Source of the DNA: Blastocatellia bacterium
Lineage (GTDB): Bacteria; Acidobacteriota; Blastocatellia; UBA7656
Direction: 5' to 3'
Length of the DNA: 11,930 nucleotides
Assembly: GCA_035709445.1 (NCBI GenBank)
Contig: DASTET010001092.1
Span: 1 to 11,930 of the forward strand
Part shown: piece by piece, positions 3,008-11,930 of the stretch
How positions within the stretch are numbered: the stretch's first letter is position 1
Layout: every line of letters begins with the position of its first letter
Notes under the pieces: generated by a model
What the model was told of the DNA's origin: nothing
Database searches by the model: none
What the model saw: the letters and a program-made list of their open reading frames with translations, nothing else
Position numbers and translations under genes: made by a program

Positions 3008-4132
3008 TTGCGTTTTTATATCGAAAGGTCTGCGGCGACGGTTCTGCTGGTAGCGGTCTGCGCCCTTGCTGTCGGGTGCGATCGGGGAGAAGAGAAGCGG
3101 TATGACTTGAAGGGCAAAGTGGTCAGCGTCGATAAGAGAGGCTCGACCGTGACCATCGCTCACGAAGAGATACCGGGCTACATGGAAGCGATGACCATGC
3201 CGTTCAGGCTGAAGGATGAATGGGCGTTCGACAAGCTGGCTCCAGGCGATCAGGTGACGGCGACGCTCGTAGTCCGAGGCGACCGCTCGTGGATCGAGGG
3301 CATCGTCTTCAGCCGACAAGAGCCGATTCCGGAAGGCGAAGCATCACCGGCAGCTTTGAATGAACCCGCGCCGGGCAGTGAAGTGCCCGGATTTTCGCTT
3401 ACGAATCAGGACGGCAAGCGCATAGACTTCGAGAAGTATAAAGGGCGGCCCCTGGTCGTAACATTCATCTATACGAGGTGCCCGGTCCCGGATTACTGCC
3501 CGTTGATGAGCGAGCGATTCGCAGAGATCGATAAGGCCATCAAGAAAGAGCCTCAGCTTTACGGTCAGGCGCGACTCCTGAGCGTCACCGTCGACCCGGA
3601 GTTCGATACGCCGGATGTGCTCAAGGCTTATGGGTCGGCCTTCACCGATCCCGCATTTCAGCACTGGGAGTTCGCCACCGGCACGCGCGACGAGATCAAG
3701 AAAGTGGCGGGCTATTTCGGCATGCAGTACTGGCCTGAAAAGGGCGAGATAATACACTCGCTTCGGACTGCGCTGGTCACGCCGGAAGGAAGACTCTTCA
3801 AGCTGTACCGTGGCAACGAGTGGAAGTCGGCGGAAATCCTCGCCGACCTCGAAGCCATGCGAGGCCAGGCGACGGCCGATCAACCGCAGCCCGGTAAGAG
3901 CGCCGTAAAGTCCTACAGCGGTGTAGGGGTGGTCGAGGAGATCGACAGGCAGATGGCGACCGTGCAGATCAATCACGAGGACATAAAAGATTTCATGCCT
4001 GCAATGAGCATGCCTTTTGCAGTGCGCGACAAAAGGCTGCTCGACGCGGCGCGGCCCGGCGACCGAGTGGAGTTCTCGGTCCACGCCGATGCTTCGGGCA
4101 TGGTGCTGGTTGCGTTAAAGAAGAGGGAATAA
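3008..4132 (+). CDS. Lipoprotein copper chaperone: SCO1/SenC thioredoxin-fold domain flanked by N- and C-terminal CusF-like Cu(I)-binding domains
   Basis: TTG start preceded by GGGAGG. Lipobox LAVGC. Two CusF-like H...M-x-M-P-F motifs (TIAHEEIPGYMEAMTMPF and INHEDIKDFMPAMSMPF; compare E. coli CusF ITIHHDPI...WPEMTMRF). Central SCO1 C-x3-C (CPVPDYCP) with the downstream conserved His (IIHSLRTALVTPEGRLF). Confidence 0.85.
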   Translation: MRFYIERSAATVLLVAVCALAVGCDRGEEKRYDLKGKVVSVDKRGSTVTIAHEEIPGYMEAMTMPFRLKDEWAFDKLAPGDQVTATLVVRGDRSWIEGIVFSRQEPIPEGEASPAALNEPAPGSEVPGFSLTNQDGKRIDFEKYKGRPLVVTFIYTRCPVPDYCPLMSERFAEIDKAIKKEPQLYGQARLLSVTVDPEFDTPDVLKAYGSAFTDPAFQHWEFATGTRDEIKKVAGYFGMQYWPEKGEIIHSLRTALVTPEGRLFKLYRGNEWKSAEILADLEAMRGQATADQPQPGKSAVKSYSGVGVVEEIDRQMATVQINHEDIKDFMPAMSMPFAVRDKRLLDAARPGDRVEFSVHADASGMVLVALKKRE

Positions 4133-5649: not shown

Positions 5650-5692
5650 GACAGGATTAACAGGTCTTTTTGTACGACCTGTTAATCCTGTC
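5650..5692. terminator. Perfect 17-bp palindrome (GACAGGATTAACAGGTC, 9-nt loop tttttgtac) at the junction of convergent genes. Candidate bidirectional terminator or protein-binding palindrome.
   Basis: Left arm 5650-5666; right arm 5676-5692, an exact reverse complement. The right arm contains the last three codons and the TAA stop (5682-5684) of the minus-strand 157-aa gene. No clean U-tract follows on either strand. Confidence 0.5.
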
Positions 5693-6155
5693 CGATGACG
5701 CTGTACTCGACCGACCCGTCCTTCAGCGAATCCGCAAAGTACAATTCGACGCGCCTGCCTGAGAAGCGCTCCAGGAGCGCCTTTCGCGCCCTCTTCAGGT
5801 TCGCGATCTGCTTCTGATTGAACTCCGGCTCGGTGAAAAAGTACTGCACACTCTCTTTGAAGAAGAGACAGTCGTCGTGCCCTACGAGCACGATCTCGGG
5901 CGACCGGGTGCGCTTGAGAAGAAAAGAGAGCGATTGCAGGTTGACCTTGAAGAACTTGGGCATCAAGTGCTCGAGCGTGACGAAGTGGCCGCCGCCCGGC
6001 ACGGCTTGCAGCGCGTAAGACGACAGGCGCAGCCCTTCGGTCAGGAACTCGTGAAACCCGGCCTGAAACCGGTGATCGCTGCAATGGATGACCACCGCCT
6101 CCGAGGTCGCGTCTTCCAGTCTGGCCTTTGATATGTAGATGGTCGGGGCTTTCAT
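5682..6155 (-). CDS. Small soluble hypothetical protein with a beta-carbonic-anhydrase-like metal-ligand pattern (C25-x-D27-x-R29 ... H93-x-x-C96); last gene of the NfeD-flotillin operon
   Basis: 157 aa, high GC3, no TM segment. VVIHCSDHRF resembles the beta-CA motif (...CSDSRV) and IVLVGHDDCLFF resembles the beta-CA motif (...VxGHxxCG), with 68-residue spacing (beta-CA about 56). An overlapping alternative-frame ORF (5614-6198) is Arg-rich and was rejected. Confidence 0.7.
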   Translation of the reverse strand: MKAPTIYISKARLEDATSEAVVIHCSDHRFQAGFHEFLTEGLRLSSYALQAVPGGGHFVTLEHLMPKFFKVNLQSLSFLLKRTRSPEIVLVGHDDCLFFKESVQYFFTEPEFNQKQIANLKRARKALLERFSGRRVELYFADSLKDGSVEYSVIGQD

Positions 6156-6261: not shown

Positions 6262-7860
6262 CTAATCCAACCGCTCAATCGATTCGGAGGAGACCTTCGT
6301 GGCGCGCTCAGCCGGGATCGCCGTGGCTGCGTCCGCGCCGGTCTTGATGCCGAGCTGCTGCATCATGGTCGGGATATCGAGGCCGAGCGCCTCAAGCTGC
6401 TGTAGCAGCCCGAAGATGACGGACGGGGCGGTTGAGGCGAAGCGACCGACTCCGCTCTGTCCGTGGCCGTTGCCGTTTCCCTGCTCGATGACTACTACCT
6501 TGTCGATGTTGCCGAGCGGGGCAGCGACCGCGCCGAAGACGGGGGCGGAAGCCTGAAGGATCGACGGCAGCTTCTCGAGTATAGTCTGGAGCCGCGCCGC
6601 CTCATTGAACTCTTTCCACGCATCGGCCTTCTTCAAGATGGCGTTCGCTTCGGCAAGCCCCTGCGCTTCTATCGCCTTCGCCTGCGCAAGCCCCATAGCT
6701 TCGATCTTTGCGGCTTCGGCCCGGCCTTCGGCCTCTATAGCTGCGGCGCGACCTGCGCCCTCTTTCTTGAGCCGCTCCTGCTCGGCCTCGGCTATAGCGA
6801 TGAGCGAAGCCTTCTTGCCTTCGGCTTCGAGTATGGCGGCCTGCTTGGCGGCCTCGGCTTTCAAGACGGCTGCCGTTCGCGCGGCATCGGCGGGCTTGAC
6901 GACGGTTGCTTCAAGCTCTTTTTCGCGCCGGAGAATCTCCTGTTCTTGAACGGCGATCTGCTCCTGGGTGCGAATCCTTTCGATGCGGACCTCTTCGGCC
7001 ACGACCGACTGGCGGGCTTTGGCCGACGAGAGCGGGCCGGACTGGTCCGCCGTCGCGCGCTCTTTTTCTACTTCTGCCTGATACTGGGCCTTTTTGACTT
7101 CGAGGTCGCGGTGCGCGAGCGAGATATTGGCCTCGGTGTCGAGCTTGACCTTTTCGCCCTCCTGCATGGCGAGGCTCGACTGAATCTTCGAGTCGCGCAG
7201 GGCTTCGGCCTCGCCGATCTGCGCATCGCGTTTGACTTCGGCGGTCCTGCTTTTTCCGAGCGCGTCGAGATAGCCCTCCTCGTCGCTTATCTCCTGGATC
7301 GTGAGCACGTCGACGCCTATGCCCATACGCTCGAGGTCGGTTGTGGCCTCGCTCGTCAGCTTCTGGGCGAAGCTCTGGCGGTCATTGTTTATCTCTTCGA
7401 CCGTCAGCGTGCCGAGTATCGCGCGGAGGTGGCCTTCGAGGGTCTGAAAGATGACGCGCTGCACCTCCTGAAGCGACATGCCGAGAAAGCGTTCGGCAGC
7501 CGCCTGTAGCGAGATGTCATCGCTTTTGATCTTGACGTTGGCGACGGCCTTGACCGAGACCGGCACGCCTTTGAGCGTGTAGGCGCGGCGTATCTCAAGC
7601 GGTATGGTCACGACGTTGAGCGCGAGGTAGTCGACCTTTTCAAGTAGCGGTATTCGAAGGGCCGCGCCTCCCTTGATTATGCGGTAGCCGACCACGCGCC
7701 CGTCCGGGAGCTTGCGCTTGCGGCCCGAAAAGACCGCCGCAGCGTTGGGCGGCACCTTTATGTAGTTGCGCGAGATCACTGACATACCGATAAAGAATGT
7801 GATGACGATGACCGCCACAATCAGAATTATCAATGGCCATTGATTTCCTAGAATATCCAT
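6262..7860 (-). CDS. Flotillin-like SPFH/band-7 protein (FloT/YuaG type)
   Basis: 532 aa. N-terminal membrane anchor (WPLIILIVAVIVITFFIGMSVI). SPFH domain, then a long coiled-coil with Glu/Ala-rich flotillin repeats (AEAEQERLKKE...AIEAEGRAEAAKIEA...). C-terminal tail. Confidence 0.9.
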   Translation of the reverse strand: MDILGNQWPLIILIVAVIVITFFIGMSVISRNYIKVPPNAAAVFSGRKRKLPDGRVVGYRIIKGGAALRIPLLEKVDYLALNVVTIPLEIRRAYTLKGVPVSVKAVANVKIKSDDISLQAAAERFLGMSLQEVQRVIFQTLEGHLRAILGTLTVEEINNDRQSFAQKLTSEATTDLERMGIGVDVLTIQEISDEEGYLDALGKSRTAEVKRDAQIGEAEALRDSKIQSSLAMQEGEKVKLDTEANISLAHRDLEVKKAQYQAEVEKERATADQSGPLSSAKARQSVVAEEVRIERIRTQEQIAVQEQEILRREKELEATVVKPADAARTAAVLKAEAAKQAAILEAEGKKASLIAIAEAEQERLKKEGAGRAAAIEAEGRAEAAKIEAMGLAQAKAIEAQGLAEANAILKKADAWKEFNEAARLQTILEKLPSILQASAPVFGAVAAPLGNIDKVVVIEQGNGNGHGQSGVGRFASTAPSVIFGLLQQLEALGLDIPTMMQQLGIKTGADAATAIPAERATKVSSESIERLD

Positions 7861-7869
7861 CGTACCCTC

Positions 7870-8469
7870 CTATGCCGGGTTATTCGGCTTGAACAAATAG
7901 ACGCCGTCGGCCTTATCTGTTTGAAAGAGGCTGACGATCACGCCATCGCCTGTGATCTCTTCGATCCTCACCAGCGAGTTATAGGGGATCTCGAAGCCTT
8001 CGCGCGAGCGGGCTATCTTTTCAACCATGCTCTCGCCCACCAGACAGCGAACCTGCCCAAAGCCGTTATTCGGGATCGCAACGGTCACCTGCGCGGTCAG
8101 CCCTACGAGGTCCGAAGAGGTGATAACGCTCGTCGCCTGCTGCGAGTAGAGCAGGCGGGCGAAGAAATAGACCGCCGCGCCGAGCGTCACGCCGCCCGCA
8201 AGCCCCAGAGCGGTGCTTGCGAAGACGCCCAGGCCCTGATAAATCCCGATGGCGCCGAACCCGCCAAAAGCGGTGATGAACACGCTGATGACCTTCGTGT
8301 TGAAAAAGCTCGGCCCGTCGTGGCCTATATCGTGGTCTATGTCATGATCGAACTCGAAATGCTCGAATATCTCGCCGAAGACAAGCGTCACGAGCAGGAA
8401 CAGGAACCCTATTGCCCCTATGGCAAGAAAGACCGAAGAGGCGCTGATCTGAGAAAGCCATTCCAACAT
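7870..8469 (-). CDS. Short NfeD-like membrane protein (YuaF type), with a His/Asp-rich insert
   Basis: 199 aa. GGAG RBS 10 nt upstream. Hydrophobic N-terminal half with 3-4 predicted TM segments. C-terminal OB-fold-like beta domain (GQVRCLVGESMVEKI...RIEEITGDGVIVSL). Lies 9 nt upstream of the flotillin gene, the classic NfeD-SPFH pairing. Insert EHFEFDHDIDHDIGHDG lies between TM1 and TM2. Confidence 0.8.
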   Translation of the reverse strand: MLEWLSQISASSVFLAIGAIGFLFLLVTLVFGEIFEHFEFDHDIDHDIGHDGPSFFNTKVISVFITAFGGFGAIGIYQGLGVFASTALGLAGGVTLGAAVYFFARLLYSQQATSVITSSDLVGLTAQVTVAIPNNGFGQVRCLVGESMVEKIARSREGFEIPYNSLVRIEEITGDGVIVSLFQTDKADGVYLFKPNNPA

Positions 8470-8591
8470 CTCATCCGCTCCTATCAGATGGTGCTATGGA
8501 TGCGGCCAGCAGACGATGGCGATGTTTGATCGTCCGCCGCTCGCCACGACGTTGCTCAGTGATAAGACCTGACCTGTAAAGAGGCGGCCAG

Positions 8592-8620
8592 ATTCTATCA
8601 CCGCCATCAACCGGAGAGAA
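8592..8620 (-). promoter_or_regulatory. Candidate sigma70 extended -10 promoter (minus strand TGaTAGAAT; weak -35 TTCTCT) for the NfeD-flotillin operon
   Basis: Minus-strand reading: ...ttctct-N17-tagaat, with TG two nt upstream of the -10. Lies immediately downstream of the anti-sigma stop and about 120 nt upstream of the NfeD start. Confidence 0.2.
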
Positions 8621-8622
8621 GG

Positions 8623-9540
8623 CTATTTCGAGGGGTCGGGCCGGGGTTTGAGGCTTTCGATGAAGTCGCGGTCTTTCGTCCCGGCGTGGCAGACTATGCA
8701 GGACTGCTGGCCGCGCTCTTCGAGGTCCGACACGAGCCCATAGGTCAGGCCGCGATCCGACCAGGTGATGACCTTTAGCCCCTCGATGGTTTCGTAATGA
8801 AAGGTGAGTCCCTTCGAGGCGATCTCTTCTCCGCCGCGCGGCGTGGCCACCCGGTCCGAGGTGACTACGAGCGTGATCGGACGGCCCTGCATCTGATAGG
8901 CGATATAAGCCGCATAATCATTCTTGAATCCGACCAGCCGCGCGCCTTCGATCTCGTAGAGCTTCTCCTGCCCGGATGTCTTCTGGTAATCCGGCAGCAC
9001 TAAACTGAACGAGACCTTTCCCGCAAACCAGCGCGACACCTCGTCGGGCGACCCGGAAGTGATCTCGAACGGGAGCTGGCCGCGCAGGTGGCGGAGGTGA
9101 GTATCGACGGCCATTATCGCAAACTCTGAGGTAAGCGAGGGCGGCGCGAGCGCAGGACGCCGCGCCGCGTACCAGAGCGCCGCTGCGATGATGAAGACGG
9201 CAACGGTGGCGAGCGCGAAGACCCGTCGGCCTTTCAGACTGAAGGGGGCGGCGGTCTTCCATAAAGACTTCTGCACGCGAGTCCGCAATTCGGGCGGAGC
9301 GGCATACACGGGCGGCGCATCGCTCAGCACACGCTCGGACTTCGCGCGAAGCTCGGGAGGCGCGGTATAAATCGGACGGGCCCGGCGTATGCTCTCGATG
9401 AACTGCCGCTCATCAGATACCATCTGCTCGCACGAACGGCATTCGGCCAGGTGCGCTTCGAATCGGGCGAGGTCCGAGCCGCTCAACTCGTCGTCGAGAT
9501 AGAAGGCTATCCGAGAGCGTATGTCGTCACAATAATTCAT
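8623..9540 (-). CDS. Transmembrane ZAS-type (zinc-finger HC2) anti-sigma factor with a periplasmic C-terminal domain ending in a CxxCH haem-c binding motif
   Basis: Start chosen at ATG 9540 (MNYCDD...). It forms an ATGA overlap with the stop codon of the upstream ECF sigma gene. ZAS signature C...H-x3-C-x2-C (FEAHLAECRSCEQ). Single TM helix (VFALATVAVFIIAAALWYAA). About 165-aa periplasmic domain. CIVCH is encoded at 8686-8700. The six-frame ORF extends to 9654, but the upstream extension is Arg/Gly-rich and lacks an RBS. Confidence 0.8.
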   Translation of the reverse strand: MNYCDDIRSRIAFYLDDELSGSDLARFEAHLAECRSCEQMVSDERQFIESIRRARPIYTAPPELRAKSERVLSDAPPVYAAPPELRTRVQKSLWKTAAPFSLKGRRVFALATVAVFIIAAALWYAARRPALAPPSLTSEFAIMAVDTHLRHLRGQLPFEITSGSPDEVSRWFAGKVSFSLVLPDYQKTSGQEKLYEIEGARLVGFKNDYAAYIAYQMQGRPITLVVTSDRVATPRGGEEIASKGLTFHYETIEGLKVITWSDRGLTYGLVSDLEERGQQSCIVCHAGTKDRDFIESLKPRPDPSK

Positions 9541-10109
9541 GCTTCTTTGGCCCGCATCGGTTTTCCCGCCGCTTCGGCCTGCCACTGACTGAGCAGCGAT
9601 CTCAGTTTTTCTCGCGCCCGTCCGAGCCGCGACATGACGGTCCCGGCGGGGCATCCCAGGATTCCGGAAATCTGCTGATAGCTGAAGCCTTCAAGGTCCC
9701 TGAGCACGATCACTTCGCGGTACAGCCGGGGAAGGCTTTCAATGGCGGCCCTTACCTCTTCGCGCTCTATCTTTCTAACAAAGACCGTATAAGGGTTGCT
9801 TGCAAGGCTGTCGAGCCATTCAGCGCGGCCCTCTTCTTCCTCATCCAGCTCGACAAATCGCGGGCCGCTACGCGCGTGGCGGAGCTGGTTGAGCCAGATA
9901 TTTCGGCAGATGGCAAACAGCCAGCCTTTCAGATTGCTGTCAGGCATGAGCTGACCGAAGGCCCTCACGGCCCGCAGATAGGTCTCCTGCACAAGGTCTT
10001 GAGCTTCGGCCTCATTGCGCGCAAGCGCCATGGCGTATCCGTACAGCGCATCGATATGCTCGATTGCCGCCTGGCGAAAGTCCACGCTGTCGCCTTTATT
10101 CTCGCTCAT
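9537..10109 (-). CDS. ECF (group IV) RNA polymerase sigma-70 factor
   Basis: Region 2 (DLVQETYLRAVRAF...WLFAICRNIWLNQLRH) and region 4 (REVIVLRDLEGFSYQQISGILGCPAGTVMSRLGRAR) are present. Start chosen at ATG 10109 (MSENKGD...), giving 190 aa, typical for ECF factors. The longer ORF to 10214 adds a hydrophobic non-homologous extension. The stop overlaps the anti-sigma start (ATGA). Confidence 0.85.
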   Translation of the reverse strand: MSENKGDSVDFRQAAIEHIDALYGYAMALARNEAEAQDLVQETYLRAVRAFGQLMPDSNLKGWLFAICRNIWLNQLRHARSGPRFVELDEEEEGRAEWLDSLASNPYTVFVRKIEREEVRAAIESLPRLYREVIVLRDLEGFSYQQISGILGCPAGTVMSRLGRAREKLRSLLSQWQAEAAGKPMRAKEA

Positions 10110-10206
10110 GATGAGCCCTGCGCCGTTGTAAAGGGCGCATAATAATAACACATGACCTCTTAAATTATTCCCTCCGCGCCCGAATAAATTCACCGGCGTG
10201 AGTGCC

Positions 10207-10233
10207 GTCACCATTCGAGGTGACTCGTGTCAC
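10207..10233. promoter_or_regulatory. Overlapping palindromes GTCACC-N6-GGTGAC and GTGAC-N4-GTCAC in the divergent sigma/CCP intergenic region. Candidate operator.
   Basis: gtcaccattcgaggtgactcgtgtcac read directly from the sequence. About 100 nt upstream of the ECF sigma start and about 145 nt upstream of the CCP start. Confidence 0.3.
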
Positions 10234-10263
10234 AGTCGCCGCGGACAAACCCGATTACAATGT

Positions 10264-10291
10264 TTGTCTGCGCCACCTGTATTTCTATGAC
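10264..10291 (+). promoter_or_regulatory. Weak candidate sigma70 promoter for the cytochrome c peroxidase gene (TTGTCT-N16-TATGAC)
   Basis: Hexamer matches 4/6 and 4/6 to consensus, 85 nt upstream of ATG 10376. Low information content; listed only as a candidate. Confidence 0.15.
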
Positions 10292-10375
10292 TTTTTCGGG
10301 CTGGTGATGGAATAAAAAAGCGATTCGCGTGTTATTACCTGGGAAGTCGAAGGTGGCCAACAGGGATCAATCATC

Positions 10376-11533
10376 ATGAAAAACAGACTACGCAATATAA
10401 AGCTGCTGCTGATTGCTGCGGCGACTGTTTTTGTCGTCATAAATCTTCTTCCCGTCACGGGGGTCGCCCAGAAAGAGAAATACAAGCCGGACCTGCCCCC
10501 GGCAATCCCGGCTGATCTATGGGAGATGCTCATCCCCGAAGACAATCCCATGACCGAAGCCAAGATCGCTTTAGGACGCGACCTCTATTTCGACAAGCGT
10601 CTTTCAGTAGATAACACCGTGAGCTGCGCGACCTGCCACGATCCGAAGACCGCTTTCGCAGAATCGAAGATCGTCGCCGAAGGGATAGGCGGCAAGAAGG
10701 GCGCGCGCAACTCTCCCACGGTCCTCAATGCGATGTTCAACGTCGAGCAGTTCTGGGATGGCCGCGCAAAAACGCTCGAAGAACAGGCCAAGGGGCCGCT
10801 CACGAACCCCTTAGAGATGGGCATGCCCTCGCACGACGCGGTCGTCGATCGGGTAAAACAGGCGCCCGACTATGTGAAGCGGTTCCAGGAGGTGTTCGGC
10901 GGCCCGGTCACCATCGACAACATTGCCAAGGCTATAGCCTCTTTCGAGCGCACGCAGCTTTCCGGCGATTCTCCGTTCGACCGTTTCAACGCTGGCGATA
11001 AGTCCGCCATAAGCGCCGAAGCCCAGCGCGGGTTCGAGATATTCAAGGGCAAGGGCCGCTGTATAACCTGTCACGAGTTCAACGCCTCTTCGCCTTTCTT
11101 CACTGACTTCAAGTACCACAATGTCGGCGTCGGAATGAAAGCGACGAAGAACTTCGAATCGCTCGCCCGGCAGGTCCAGCAGATGGCTCAGCAGCAGCAG
11201 CTCACCGCCGAATCTTTGGACCAGCTTTCGCTCAGCGAAGGGTTCTCCGAGCTTGGCAGGTTCCTCGTCACGCGCGAGCCGAAAGACGTAGGAGCATTCA
11301 AGACGCCTCCGCTACGCGACATAGAGCTGACCGCTCCTTATATGCACGACGGCAGCCAGAAGACGCTGCGCGAGGTCATAGACTTTTACAACAAAGGGGG
11401 CGAGCCGAACCCCAATCTCGACGGCGGGATTCGCAAGCTCGATCTCACAGACCAGGAGATAAGCGACCTGGAAGCGTTCCTGAAATCATTGACCAGTGAT
11501 CGCGTTCGCAAACTAGTGTCTGGCGAGTCGTAA
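10376..11533 (+). CDS. ccp: Di-haem cytochrome c peroxidase (CCP/MauG family), secreted
   Basis: Signal peptide MKNRLRNIKLLLIAAATVFVVINLL. Two CxxCH motifs (CATCHDP, CITCHEF). Family signature TAPYMHDGS. Conserved FWDGRA and PLTNPLEMG segments. A Gln-rich insert (QVQQMAQQQQLTAESLDQLS) lies between the haem domains. Confidence 0.9.
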   Translation: MKNRLRNIKLLLIAAATVFVVINLLPVTGVAQKEKYKPDLPPAIPADLWEMLIPEDNPMTEAKIALGRDLYFDKRLSVDNTVSCATCHDPKTAFAESKIVAEGIGGKKGARNSPTVLNAMFNVEQFWDGRAKTLEEQAKGPLTNPLEMGMPSHDAVVDRVKQAPDYVKRFQEVFGGPVTIDNIAKAIASFERTQLSGDSPFDRFNAGDKSAISAEAQRGFEIFKGKGRCITCHEFNASSPFFTDFKYHNVGVGMKATKNFESLARQVQQMAQQQQLTAESLDQLSLSEGFSELGRFLVTREPKDVGAFKTPPLRDIELTAPYMHDGSQKTLREVIDFYNKGGEPNPNLDGGIRKLDLTDQEISDLEAFLKSLTSDRVRKLVSGES

Positions 11534-11691: not shown

Positions 11692-11930
11692 ATGTGGCCA
11701 TTAAAATGGAAAAAAAGAGAACAGCAGTATCAGGCCGAACGAGCCGAGTTCTTCGATGCGGTCAAACGGCTTGATAGGCGGTCGTTTCTGAAGGTGGCGG
11801 GCATGTCAGCGGCCGTGGCCGCTGCGCACACGACGTTTCCACCTCACTCGTTTCAGCTCGTAGATGTCGTTTCGGCCCAGACTATGGAGAAGCCGCACTT
11901 CAGGTTCGCCTATATCTCGGACTCGCACCT
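11692..11930 (+). CDS. Tat-secreted metallophosphoesterase (calcineurin-like), 5' partial (runs off the window end)
   Basis: GGAG lies 9 nt upstream of ATG 11692. Twin-arginine motif LDRRSFLKVAG with an Ala-rich h-region. The first metallophosphoesterase motif (FAYISDSHL, a D-x-H type) lies right at the window end. Confidence 0.6.
   Translation, partial: MWPLKWKKREQQYQAERAEFFDAVKRLDRRSFLKVAGMSAAVAAAHTTFPPHSFQLVDVVSAQTMEKPHFRFAYISDSH

Follow-up and report, generated by a model that had tools for sequence, protein, structure and literature searches.

A gene pair in the window of Blastocatellia DNA studied here (the whole stretch of 11,930 nucleotides that was analysed) encodes an ECF sigma factor and a membrane-anchored anti-sigma factor, whose exported domain carries a CxxCH motif conserved among its homologues. 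The same promoter motif stands upstream of this pair and upstream of a divergent gene coding for a secreted di-haem peroxidase. On balance, it is probable that the pair comprises a c-haem-bearing anti-sigma factor controlling periplasmic peroxide defence, in which the haem attachment and the nature of the signal are what we infer. ECF sigma/anti-sigma pairs rank among the main signalling systems of bacteria, and the signal is known for few anti-sigma sensor domains.

Gene pair, zinc domain and membrane topology

The genes of the pair, and the cytoplasmic and membrane segments of the anti-sigma factor, were located as follows.

9537 to 10109, minus strand: ECF sigma factor gene, SigH/SigR-like, 190 aa, with Pfam Sigma70_r2 and Sigma70_r4_2 matches
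8623 to 9540, minus strand: anti-sigma factor gene, 305 aa plus stop
9430 to 9531, minus strand: cytoplasmic zinc-binding anti-sigma motif, formed by C4 (9529-9531) and H30-x3-C34-x2-C37 (9430-9453)
9283 to 9363, minus strand: APPELR helix motif present twice in the cytoplasmic linker, at residues 60-65 and 81-86, and also in the family consensus
9163 to 9228, minus strand: single transmembrane helix, residues 105-126, from a hydropathy scan

An earlier note on this DNA had placed the anti-sigma ORF at 8623-9540(-), and both its coordinates and its features were found as described there. The 305-aa protein is identical in sequence to the NCBI entry 'zf-HC2 domain-containing protein [Blastocatellia bacterium]'. 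The translational coupling to the ECF sigma gene, also proposed in that note, corresponds to an ATGA at 9537-9540, in which the anti-sigma start overlaps the sigma stop codon, and the sigma gene was found directly upstream of the anti-sigma gene in 82/84 related loci. These 84 loci were fetched with an alignment of closer homologues (A2) and not with the diverse 106-sequence alignment (A1), and the bases of the counts given below differ: 84 fetched loci, 82 loci (1.02 Mb) for the promoter motif, and 80 species-level loci for the CxxCH. Among solved structures, M. tuberculosis SigH is nearest to the sigma factor (E=8e-27).

In the cytoplasmic part of the anti-sigma factor, Pfam zf-HC2 covers residues 4-37 (E=2.9e-11), and the ligands H30, C34 and C37 are invariant across homologues, with C4 conserved in at least 90% of them. 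A family profile over residues 1-79 matched RsiW (E=2.7e-9) and RsrA (E=1.1e-7), with C4 aligning with the first Cys of both proteins, which in RsrA is the first zinc ligand. Having the sequence motif, the helical anti-sigma domain fold and the gene context that define the ZAS (class I) proteins, the anti-sigma factor is assigned to this group, and zinc binding and sigma sequestration are predicted for it. The linker that follows is predicted by AF2 to form helices at residues 62-74 and 83-96. Only one segment, residues 105-126, rose above 1.2 in the hydropathy scan (Kyte-Doolittle maximum 2.34); AF2 puts the transmembrane helix at 106-127, and it is flanked by KGRR on its N-side and by RR on its C-side. 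The membrane ZAS with an H-x3-C-x2-C zf-HC2 motif and one transmembrane helix, as it had been pictured from the sequence, is thus borne out by the zf-HC2 match and the one hydrophobic segment. Since the helix is single and the sigma-binding N-terminal domain is necessarily cytoplasmic, the C-terminal 179 aa must be periplasmic. In this way, the reverse orientation, which the note had named as fatal to its proposal, is opposed by the single helix together with the RsiW/RsrA-like N-domain, which place the CxxCH side in the periplasm.

The periplasmic domain and its CxxCH motif

The exported part of the protein comprised one domain with a putative haem attachment site and two candidate distal ligands.

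8626 to 9162, minus strand: periplasmic domain, residues 127-305 (179 aa), belonging to no Pfam family
8686 to 8700, minus strand: C281-I-V-C284-H285, conserved motif, putative covalent haem c attachment site
9097 to 9099, minus strand: H148 in the first periplasmic helix, candidate distal haem ligand, His in 109/123 clusters (89%)
8797 to 8799, minus strand: H248 in a beta-strand, second candidate distal ligand, His in 122/144 clusters (85%)

The C-I-V-C-H had been read at these positions near the periplasmic C-terminus, and it maps to residues 281-285. The domain was likewise recognised, with a length estimated at about 165 aa, which has to be revised to ~179 aa (127-305). All five Cys residues of the anti-sigma factor lie within either the zinc motif or the CxxCH. 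The expectation for a chance CxxCH, calculated from the protein's own composition, was 1.3e-3, in agreement with the order of 1e-3 proposed previously. The retention of the motif by orthologues, which had been suggested as a check, was observed in 120/120 close homologues, in 80/80 species-level genome loci and in 133/142 representative clusters (50% identity, covering the site), down to ~30% identity; the clusters lacking it were mostly frameshifted-looking. Moreover, H285 is as invariant as C281 and C284, being His in 137/140 of the alignment column in the representative clusters, while the two middle residues vary freely across homologues. Judged by sequence comparison, the CxxCH is beyond chance, and the combination of an invariant His, both Cys and free middle residues is that of a haem c site.

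The domain consists of a helix at 139-152, a seven-stranded antiparallel sheet spanning 196-271 and C-terminal helices at 278-285 and 288-296. In its predicted fold it is similar to TM1622 and to the N-domain of RseB/MucB and not to a cytochrome, and the likeness to RseB/MucB is one of fold only, at a sequence identity of 8-10%. No PDB sequence homologue of the domain was found, and a Pfam search with 106 family members returned no significant match to it. Membership of a cytochrome family was rejected on the same grounds, the best matches being SoxA-TsdA (E=0.023) and P460 (E=0.19) in 2-4/106 members; these weak matches (P460, SoxA, MtrC, Tll0287) are insignificant local alignments around the CxxCH.

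The earlier note had also asked whether a structural model would set the CxxCH on an ordered element with a conserved distal ligand, and the answer was divided. The motif does lie on a predicted helix, the confidence of which was moderate to low (pLDDT 72-81 for the full-length protein and 53-72 when the domain was modelled by itself), and no strictly invariant distal ligand was found among the representative clusters, in which H148 (89%), H248 (85%) and M217 (53%) are conserved to different degrees. Position 148 is His in 100/106 sequences of the diverse alignment A1, and H248 is invariant in a second subfamily of these anti-sigma factors (described below).

Proteins of the c type are also found nearby: the adjacent peroxidase has two CxxCH and a signal peptide, and related loci encode di-CxxCH proteins and SoxA/TsdA-type cytochromes. 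On the two CxxCH and the signal peptide of the neighbouring peroxidase, the host organism probably makes periplasmic c-type cytochromes. Most likely, a cytochrome c maturation system would attach haem covalently to C281 and C284 of the anti-sigma factor, with H285 as the proximal ligand.

Promoter motif, peroxidase genes and other neighbours

Upstream of the sigma gene, the window contained two exact matches to an ECF-type promoter and the divergent genes listed below.

10147 to 10171, minus strand: ECF-type promoter GGAATAATTTAAGAGGTCATGTGTT, exact match, 35 nt upstream of the sigma ATG
10309 to 10333, plus strand: second copy of the ECF-type promoter, GGAATAAAAAAGCGATTCGCGTGTT, exact match, 42 nt upstream of the CCP ATG
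10376 to 11533, plus strand: divergent gene for a di-haem cytochrome c peroxidase (CCP/MauG family) with a signal peptide, PF03150 E=6.6e-60
11692 to 11930, plus strand: first part of a Metallophos (calcineurin-like phosphoesterase) gene that follows CCP and runs past the window end (tblastn, family F4 members, 43-48% identity)

The motif GGAAT-N15-GTGTT therefore precedes the sigma gene as well as the divergent CCP gene, the latter having been correctly named as a di-haem CCP in the earlier note. In 82 Blastocatellia loci (1.02 Mb), 128 copies of it were counted, against ~2 expected from its ten fixed bases, of which 66 faced the sigma gene and 62 the divergent gene. A sigma-facing copy was found in 61/74 loci with a called sigma ORF, and this copy points to autoregulation of the sigma operon. 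The CCP gene is likely a regulon member of the sigma pair, and its sharing an ECF-type promoter with the sigma operon fits such control. A scan of 8300-10450 gave no sigma-70-type promoter, and the one terminator-like hairpin, at 10404-10423 (+), is internal to the CCP coding sequence and does not exceed what shuffled sequences yield.

The identity of the divergent gene varied among the loci. In 28/69 loci it encodes a ~465-aa di-CxxCH protein, whose C-terminal half is homologous to CCP (PDB 1iqc, E=1.6e-6); in 8/69 it is CCP itself, and in 5/69 a KatG-type peroxidase, a type that is present in 8 loci. Signal peptides start all three types. CCP as the universal partner was discarded, since it is present in only 11/82 loci, and the link to peroxidases holds when the other two types are added. 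The divergent gene in Blastocatellia thus usually encodes a secreted peroxidase of one of these three types. In addition, the gene order CCP-Metallophos-SoxA/TsdA cytochrome recurs in other loci.

Other neighbouring genes were considered as members of the system and set aside. The earlier note had linked the pair to an NfeD-flotillin operon directly downstream, and this link was abandoned: the promoter motif is missing there, and the 'NfeD' ORF (7870-8469), for which no Pfam or NCBIfam match was obtained, and the flotillin gene lie next to the sigma pair in 0/84 related loci. Consequently, of its suggestion that the pair could control CCP or envelope genes, the first half agrees with the shared promoter, whereas the second finds neither motif nor synteny. 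A CusF-Sco1-CusF fusion gene occurs in the window at 3008-4132 and within 8 kb of the pair in 10/84 fetched loci, one of them a duplicate (9 distinct). It was rejected as a regulon member with the promoter motif on 0/9 genes, as was an M64 peptidase (0/17).

In a second anti-sigma subfamily (80 loci), the promoter motif and the CxxCH domain are the same and peroxidases are missing from the neighbourhood, which includes a second sigma-like gene, SDR, glycosyltransferase, DUF3455, O-methyltransferase and BBE oxidase. Peroxidase linkage was accordingly dropped as a family-wide rule, considering the other target genes of this subfamily and two further distant loci without peroxidase neighbours. 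Because the second subfamily combines the same motif and domain with no peroxidases, peroxide cannot be assumed as the signal of the whole family.

Proposed mechanism, rival explanations and known systems

In the mechanism that we favour, the SigH/SigR-like sigma factor would recognise GGAAT-N15-GTGTT in front of its own operon and of the divergent gene for the secreted di-haem CCP, while the anti-sigma factor would hold it at the membrane through its RsiW/RsrA-type zinc domain (C4/H30/C34/C37). Beyond the one transmembrane helix, the exported, previously unclassified alpha/beta domain would present the CxxCH on its C-terminal helix, with H148 or H248 as a possible labile distal ligand of the haem. 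Oxidation of this haem by peroxide, or the binding of a ligand to it, may alter or destabilise the periplasmic domain, leading to site-1 cleavage and then, as in RsiW and RseA, to intramembrane proteolysis. Release of the sigma factor would in this way induce the periplasmic peroxidases. The RsrA-like zinc-thiolate site could provide a second, cytoplasmic oxidant input.

That same site could also be the real sensor. In this alternative, which we regard as rather unlikely, C4/H30/C34/C37 would act as in RsrA or RslA, with disulphide formation and zinc loss freeing the sigma factor, and the periplasmic domain would be an anchor, a stabiliser or a binder, for instance of lipid in an RseB-like pocket, with or without haem. 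An RsrA-like site alone could explain oxidant sensing, and several features agree with it, such as the profile matches to RsrA and RsiW, the equivalence of C4 to the first ligand of RsrA, the SigH-like sigma factor with its sigmaR-like promoter, and the resemblance of the periplasmic fold to the lipid-binding RseB/MucB N-domain. However, the periplasmic domain, with its 179 aa and invariant CxxCH, is kept in two acidobacterial subfamilies, which speaks for a role in its own right; the peroxidases of the local regulon are secreted and not cytoplasmic, and RsiW, which has the same zinc site, is not known to be redox-switched.

The conserved residues of the periplasmic domain may also be read in terms other than haem. 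It is quite improbable that C281, C284 and H285, with H148 and/or H248, form a periplasmic site for Cu, Zn or Fe and that the protein is a metal sensor, as could be supposed from two Cys and three well-conserved His and from the CusF-Sco1-CusF genes of the window and of related loci. Those genes lack the ECF promoter motif (0/9), the promoter-linked partner genes being peroxidases, and neighbouring Cys and His residues seldom coordinate the same metal ion. Furthermore, H285 is as invariant as the Cys and H148 and H248 are less so, the opposite of what a Cys2His2 site including H148 and H248 would lead one to expect. A thiol-disulphide switch or a structural disulphide formed by the CxxC in the oxidising periplasm, in which the His would be incidental or would tune reactivity, is very improbable: many periplasmic proteins do have redox-active CxxC motifs and the regulon is oxidant-related, but the His is invariant (137/140), the middle residues vary freely, unlike those of thioredoxin-type CxxC, and Dsb systems would keep a periplasmic CxxC constitutively oxidised, which would make it a poor sensor.

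Returning to the c-haem reading, a broader form of it is put forward tentatively, with the odds somewhat against it. The protein would be the first representative of a large family of ECF anti-sigma factors with a covalent c-haem sensor across Acidobacteriota, in which at least 687 clusters at 50% identity were counted. In Blastocatellia the haem would directly detect periplasmic H2O2, possibly sacrificially, its oxidation leading through proteolysis to the secreted peroxidases, and together with the zinc switch the protein would read two compartments. The earlier note did not recognise a haem-c transmembrane anti-sigma sensor as a characterised architecture, and in keeping with this no earlier description of a haem-c anti-sigma factor was found in the literature, nor does the main text of the ECF re-classification paper mention a haem-bearing one. 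A paper on a 'haem binding tag' was considered as support and dropped, since it is not CxxCH-based. If confirmed, sensing by a covalent haem on an anti-sigma factor would be a principle for which no description was found in this class, and transcription would be coupled directly to peroxide or redox chemistry in the periplasm. A diderm would then regulate its secreted peroxidases (CCP, the new CCP-like di-haem protein and periplasmic KatG) from their own compartment, in contrast to the cytoplasmic sensors OxyR or PerR. Members of the family are plentiful in soil Acidobacteria, which form a dominant and poorly understood phylum, and the GGAAT-N15-GTGTT motif offers a means of genome-wide regulon prediction and a reporter.

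Among known systems, RsrA-sigmaR and RshA-sigmaH (ECF12), the thiol-oxidative stress switches of Actinobacteria, share with the Blastocatellia pair the zinc ligand set Cys...H-x3-C-x2-C, the SigH-like sigma factor, an oxidant-related regulon and an autoregulated promoter with GGAAT at -35 and GTT at -10. The Blastocatellia motif can be read as GGAAT-N17-GTT, a spacing one base under the N18 of sigmaR promoters. The sigmaR consensus is GGAAT/GTTG (PMC5005934). The curated equivalog scores of these systems were not reached: the sigma factor scored 128.8 bits against NCBIfam SigH_actino (TIGR02947; cut-off 251.55), and the anti-sigma factor 46.8 against antisig_RsrA (TIGR03988; NCBIfam equivalog cut-off 62.5). 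RsrA and RshA are soluble and cytoplasmic, whereas the Blastocatellia protein has a transmembrane helix and the periplasmic CxxCH domain, and the sigmaR/sigmaH regulon comprises thioredoxin or mycothiol genes in place of secreted peroxidases. RsiW-sigmaW of Bacillus subtilis, with a membrane zinc anti-sigma factor under regulated proteolysis, presents the same order of zinc anti-sigma domain, one transmembrane helix and extracytoplasmic domain, and homologues are annotated as 'anti-sigma factor RsiW' by JGI. The match to RsiW is confined to profile positions 1-79, a comparison of which the extracytoplasmic domains are not part, and we know of no CxxCH-bearing domain in RsiW.

Extracytoplasmic sensor domains with covalent c-haem are known, and CxxCH conservation (99%) defines the sCache_heme group (PMC12889525). 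These domains (GSU0582/GSU0935, Tll0287/DUF3365; DcrA) likewise have a non-cytochrome scaffold with a short CxxCH helix, a near-totally conserved CxxCH (99%, versus at least 94% in the anti-sigma family) and a periplasmic location on a transmembrane signalling protein (PMC12889525). Their fold, however, is Cache/PAS-like, with the motif between beta3 and beta4, in contrast to the TM1622/RseB-like sheet of the anti-sigma domain with the motif on a C-terminal helix, and the Pfam Tll0287-like model (PF11845) was not significant on 106 family members (3/106, best E=0.065). The sCache_heme outputs are chemoreceptors, histidine kinases and GGDEF/EAL proteins, sigma/anti-sigma factors being absent from the text of that paper (PMC12889525). 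An analogous logic, with extracellular haem-based sensing and peroxidase output, is found in HbpS-SenS-SenR of Streptomyces reticuli, in which HbpS is an extracellular haem-binding oxidative stress sensor controlling a catalase-peroxidase gene (PMC3184428). HbpS is a separate secreted protein that acts on a two-component kinase and not an anti-sigma factor, and neither its sequence nor its fold is related to the anti-sigma periplasmic domain. Its haem is bound non-covalently. Finally, RseA/RseB-sigmaE and MucA/MucB-AlgU are the paradigm for the release by site-1 and site-2 proteolysis that is proposed here. RseB lacks a CxxCH, and the RseB-like fold, which in those systems belongs to a separate anti-sigma-binding protein, is fused to the anti-sigma factor in Blastocatellia.

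Conservation of the CxxCH motif in the anti-sigma factor

The window is a contig from a metagenome-assembled genome of Blastocatellia (Acidobacteriota). Around the anti-sigma gene, whose product is identical to an existing NCBI protein entry, it presents the following features:

8623-9540, minus strand: anti-sigma gene, 305 aa; start ATG overlapping the sigma gene's TGA
N-terminus MNYC and H30-x3-C34-x2-C37: zinc motif (Pfam zf-HC2, E=2.9e-11)
residues 105-126: membrane segment, the sole hydrophobic segment
C281-I-V-C284-H285 (nt 8700-8686): CxxCH, within the 179-residue periplasmic part
9537-10109, minus strand: ECF sigma gene, directly upstream of the anti-sigma gene
10376-11533, plus strand: divergent di-haem cytochrome c peroxidase (CCP) gene; product with a signal peptide

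The earlier note had correctly described the zinc motif, the one membrane segment, C281-I-V-C284-H285, the ATG/TGA overlap and the divergent CCP, and its chance estimate for a CxxCH (order 1e-3) agreed with the 1.3e-3 computed from the anti-sigma factor's own composition. All five Cys of the protein belong to the zinc motif or the CxxCH. In the cytoplasmic linker that joins zinc domain and membrane helix (9283-9363, minus strand), a Y-x-A-P-P-E-L-R-x-[KR] helix motif occurred twice (residues 60-65 and 81-86), and both copies were kept in the family consensus.

The conservation of the motif in orthologues, which the note had proposed as a check, was confirmed: CxxCH was found at the same position in 120/120 of the closest homologues (56-100% identity) and was encoded in 80/80 species-level genome loci. 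A search of the periplasmic part against 1.84 billion cluster representatives retrieved 687 clusters at E<=1e-3, of which 65 reached E<=1e-30, the looked-up named members of distant clusters belonging to Terriglobia and Bryobacteraceae; among the top 149 representatives, 142 covered the site and 133 of these kept C..CH. In a 106-sequence alignment, H30, C34, C37, G199, C281, C284 and H285 were invariant, with free variation between C281 and C284. In the top representatives, W171, W260, Y267 and G199 were each more than 95% conserved, and the candidate distal ligands were less conserved than CxxCH (H148, 89%; H248, 85%; M217, 53%).

Among the nine exceptions, the cluster representatives P0261 (CLVCR) and P0203 (one Cys) looked real. 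Four others (P0187, P0210, P0211 and P0230) lacked CxxCH and read '(A/I)(V/I)LHGLP...' at the site, which hand translation identified as the expected product of a frameshifted 'C-x-V-C-H-G-S-P'. This apparent frameshift just before the motif was seen repeatedly, in independent clusters; genuine pseudogenes or an error in sequencing a repeat could explain it.

Predicted fold and reading of the sensor domain

The periplasmic domain had no significant Pfam match and no sequence relative in the PDB. AlphaFold models of the full-length protein (pLDDT 88.6) and of the domain only (pTM 0.81) presented a helix (139-152), a seven-stranded antiparallel sheet (196-271) and two C-terminal helices (278-285 and 288-296), the CxxCH being placed at the end of helix 278-285. 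The core exceeded a pLDDT of 90, and the CxxCH segment reached 72-81 in the full-length and 53-72 in the domain-only model. The fold matches were TM1622, RseB and MucB, followed by START, UTRA and PsbP-type ligand-binding folds; the predicted fold is not that of a cytochrome. Known c-haem sensors of the extracytoplasmic side belong to chemoreceptors, kinases and GGDEF/EAL proteins (PMC12889525); they have a Cache fold, which the fold modelled here is not.

Covalent haem attachment is the most economical reading of the CxxCH, since the motif is periplasmic and invariant, its His is as conserved as its Cys, and the organism exports c-type cytochromes. A periplasmic metal site or a disulphide switch would be less likely: the His adjoining C284 is invariant, the middle residues of the motif vary, and the copper-chaperone neighbour lacks the ECF promoter motif. 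The main rival is that the RsrA-like zinc site is the only input; under covalent haem attachment, this site would be a possible second input. Following the RsiW/RseA paradigm, the sigma factor would be freed by regulated proteolysis.

Neither the full-text library searched nor the ECF re-classification paper (main text) yielded a report of a haem-c anti-sigma factor; an earlier description elsewhere is possible. The signalling architecture is a familiar one, here with a new and probably haem-bearing sensor domain. HbpS-SenS-SenR, which controls a catalase-peroxidase, is a functional analogue (PMC3184428).

The promoter motif and the divergent partners

The sigma factor had M. tuberculosis SigH as its closest solved relative (E=8e-27) and did not reach the cut-off of NCBIfam SigH_actino. 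When 5-mer/spacer/4-mer pairs 5' of sigma genes were counted de novo, the result was GGAAT-N15-GTGTT, found upstream of the sigma genes in 62/78 loci, with its reverse complement in 55. The consensus, GGAATA(A)...GTGTTATT, resembles the sigmaR promoter, which has GGAAT at -35 and GTTG at -10 (PMC5005934). The window contains two exact copies:

10147-10171, minus strand: promoter copy 1, 35 nt before the sigma ATG
10309-10333, plus strand: promoter copy 2, 42 nt before the CCP ATG

Across the 82 non-duplicate loci (1.02 Mb), 128 exact copies were counted versus ~2 expected from ten fixed bases, 66 oriented toward the sigma gene and 62 toward the divergent gene.

In these 82 loci, ORFs were called and clustered and representatives were scanned against Pfam; neighbour counts are approximate because the ORF calling was a simple procedure. 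Considering the 69 loci where the gene upstream of sigma was interpretable, the commonest divergent partner was a ~465-aa protein with two CxxCH motifs (28/69; encoded in L021:5715-7133, L003:5714-7126, L004:5570-6889 and ~30 other loci), followed by CCP (8/69; present in 11 loci) and a KatG-type peroxidase (5/69; present in 8 loci). All three partner types started with signal peptides. The exact promoter motif was located 5' of 26/33 genes of the ~465-aa di-haem protein, 6/11 CCP and 7/8 KatG genes, and of none of the CusF-Sco (0/9) or M64-peptidase (0/17) genes. In Blastocatellia, the local regulon of secreted peroxidases suggests that periplasmic peroxide or oxidative stress is the signal.

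The ~465-aa protein had no significant Pfam match, the best being a weak one to DHOR (E=0.003). Homology to the di-haem CCPs was seen over its C-terminal 135 aa (PDB 1iqc, E=1.6e-6), and the protein appears to form an undescribed branch of the CCP/MauG superfamily. The KatG-type catalase-peroxidases adjoining the pair (L024, L031, L032, L043, L049 and L062; e.g. L032:4877-7156) all carried N-terminal signal peptides and are thus periplasmic enzymes. The start of a Metallophos gene lay 3' of CCP in the window, an order repeated in other loci.

A second subfamily and other neighbouring genes

A second subfamily comprised 80 soil-metagenome loci (L087-L166), with anti-sigma factors 46-60% identical to the diverged subfamily query, whose alignment was ~34-47% identical internally. 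The CxxCH domain was the same, H245 being invariant in it, and GGAAT-N15-GTGTT was shared as well (126 exact matches in 464 kb). The targets were different ones: a second sigma-like gene, SDR, glycosyltransferase, DUF3455, O-methyltransferase and BBE-type oxidase. The motif preceded the short second sigma-like gene, located just downstream of the anti-sigma gene, and also genes for enzymes usual in secondary metabolism, namely the O-methyltransferase, BBE oxidase, glycosyltransferase and SDR; this pattern suggests a cascade of sigma factors and another regulon. Peroxidases were also absent from two further distant loci. With promoter and CxxCH shared and targets differing, comparison of the loci indicates that sensor module and promoter specificity are family-wide and that output differs between clades.

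Eight loci (L013, L032, L034, L038, L040, L043, L056 and L072) came from MAGs bearing the title 'uncultured Clostridia' or 'Heliobacteriaceae'; they carried the same acidobacterial gene pair (51-61% identity) in surroundings that matched those of the Blastocatellia loci, and these organism labels are probably wrong.

A link of the pair with the NfeD-flotillin genes, which the earlier note had placed next to it, was not upheld, as the window's NfeD-like ORF and flotillin gene had no counterpart near the pair in any other locus. The ORF labelled NfeD in the note matched nothing in Pfam or NCBIfam, even with the threshold relaxed to E=5:

7870-8469, minus strand: 199-aa membrane protein ORF, immediately 5' of the flotillin gene (6262-7860), gap 9 nt

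The window also encodes a 374-aa CusF-Sco1/SenC-CusF fusion protein (3008-4132, plus strand), with homologues within 8 kb of the pair in 10/84 fetched loci (9 distinct), none with the ECF promoter motif. For a 157-aa ORF (5682-6155, minus strand), the match to Pro_CA_2 (putative carbonic anhydrase) stayed under the threshold, at 22.2 bits versus a cut-off of 30; in one further locus, L026, a 60%-identical homologue lay close to the pair.
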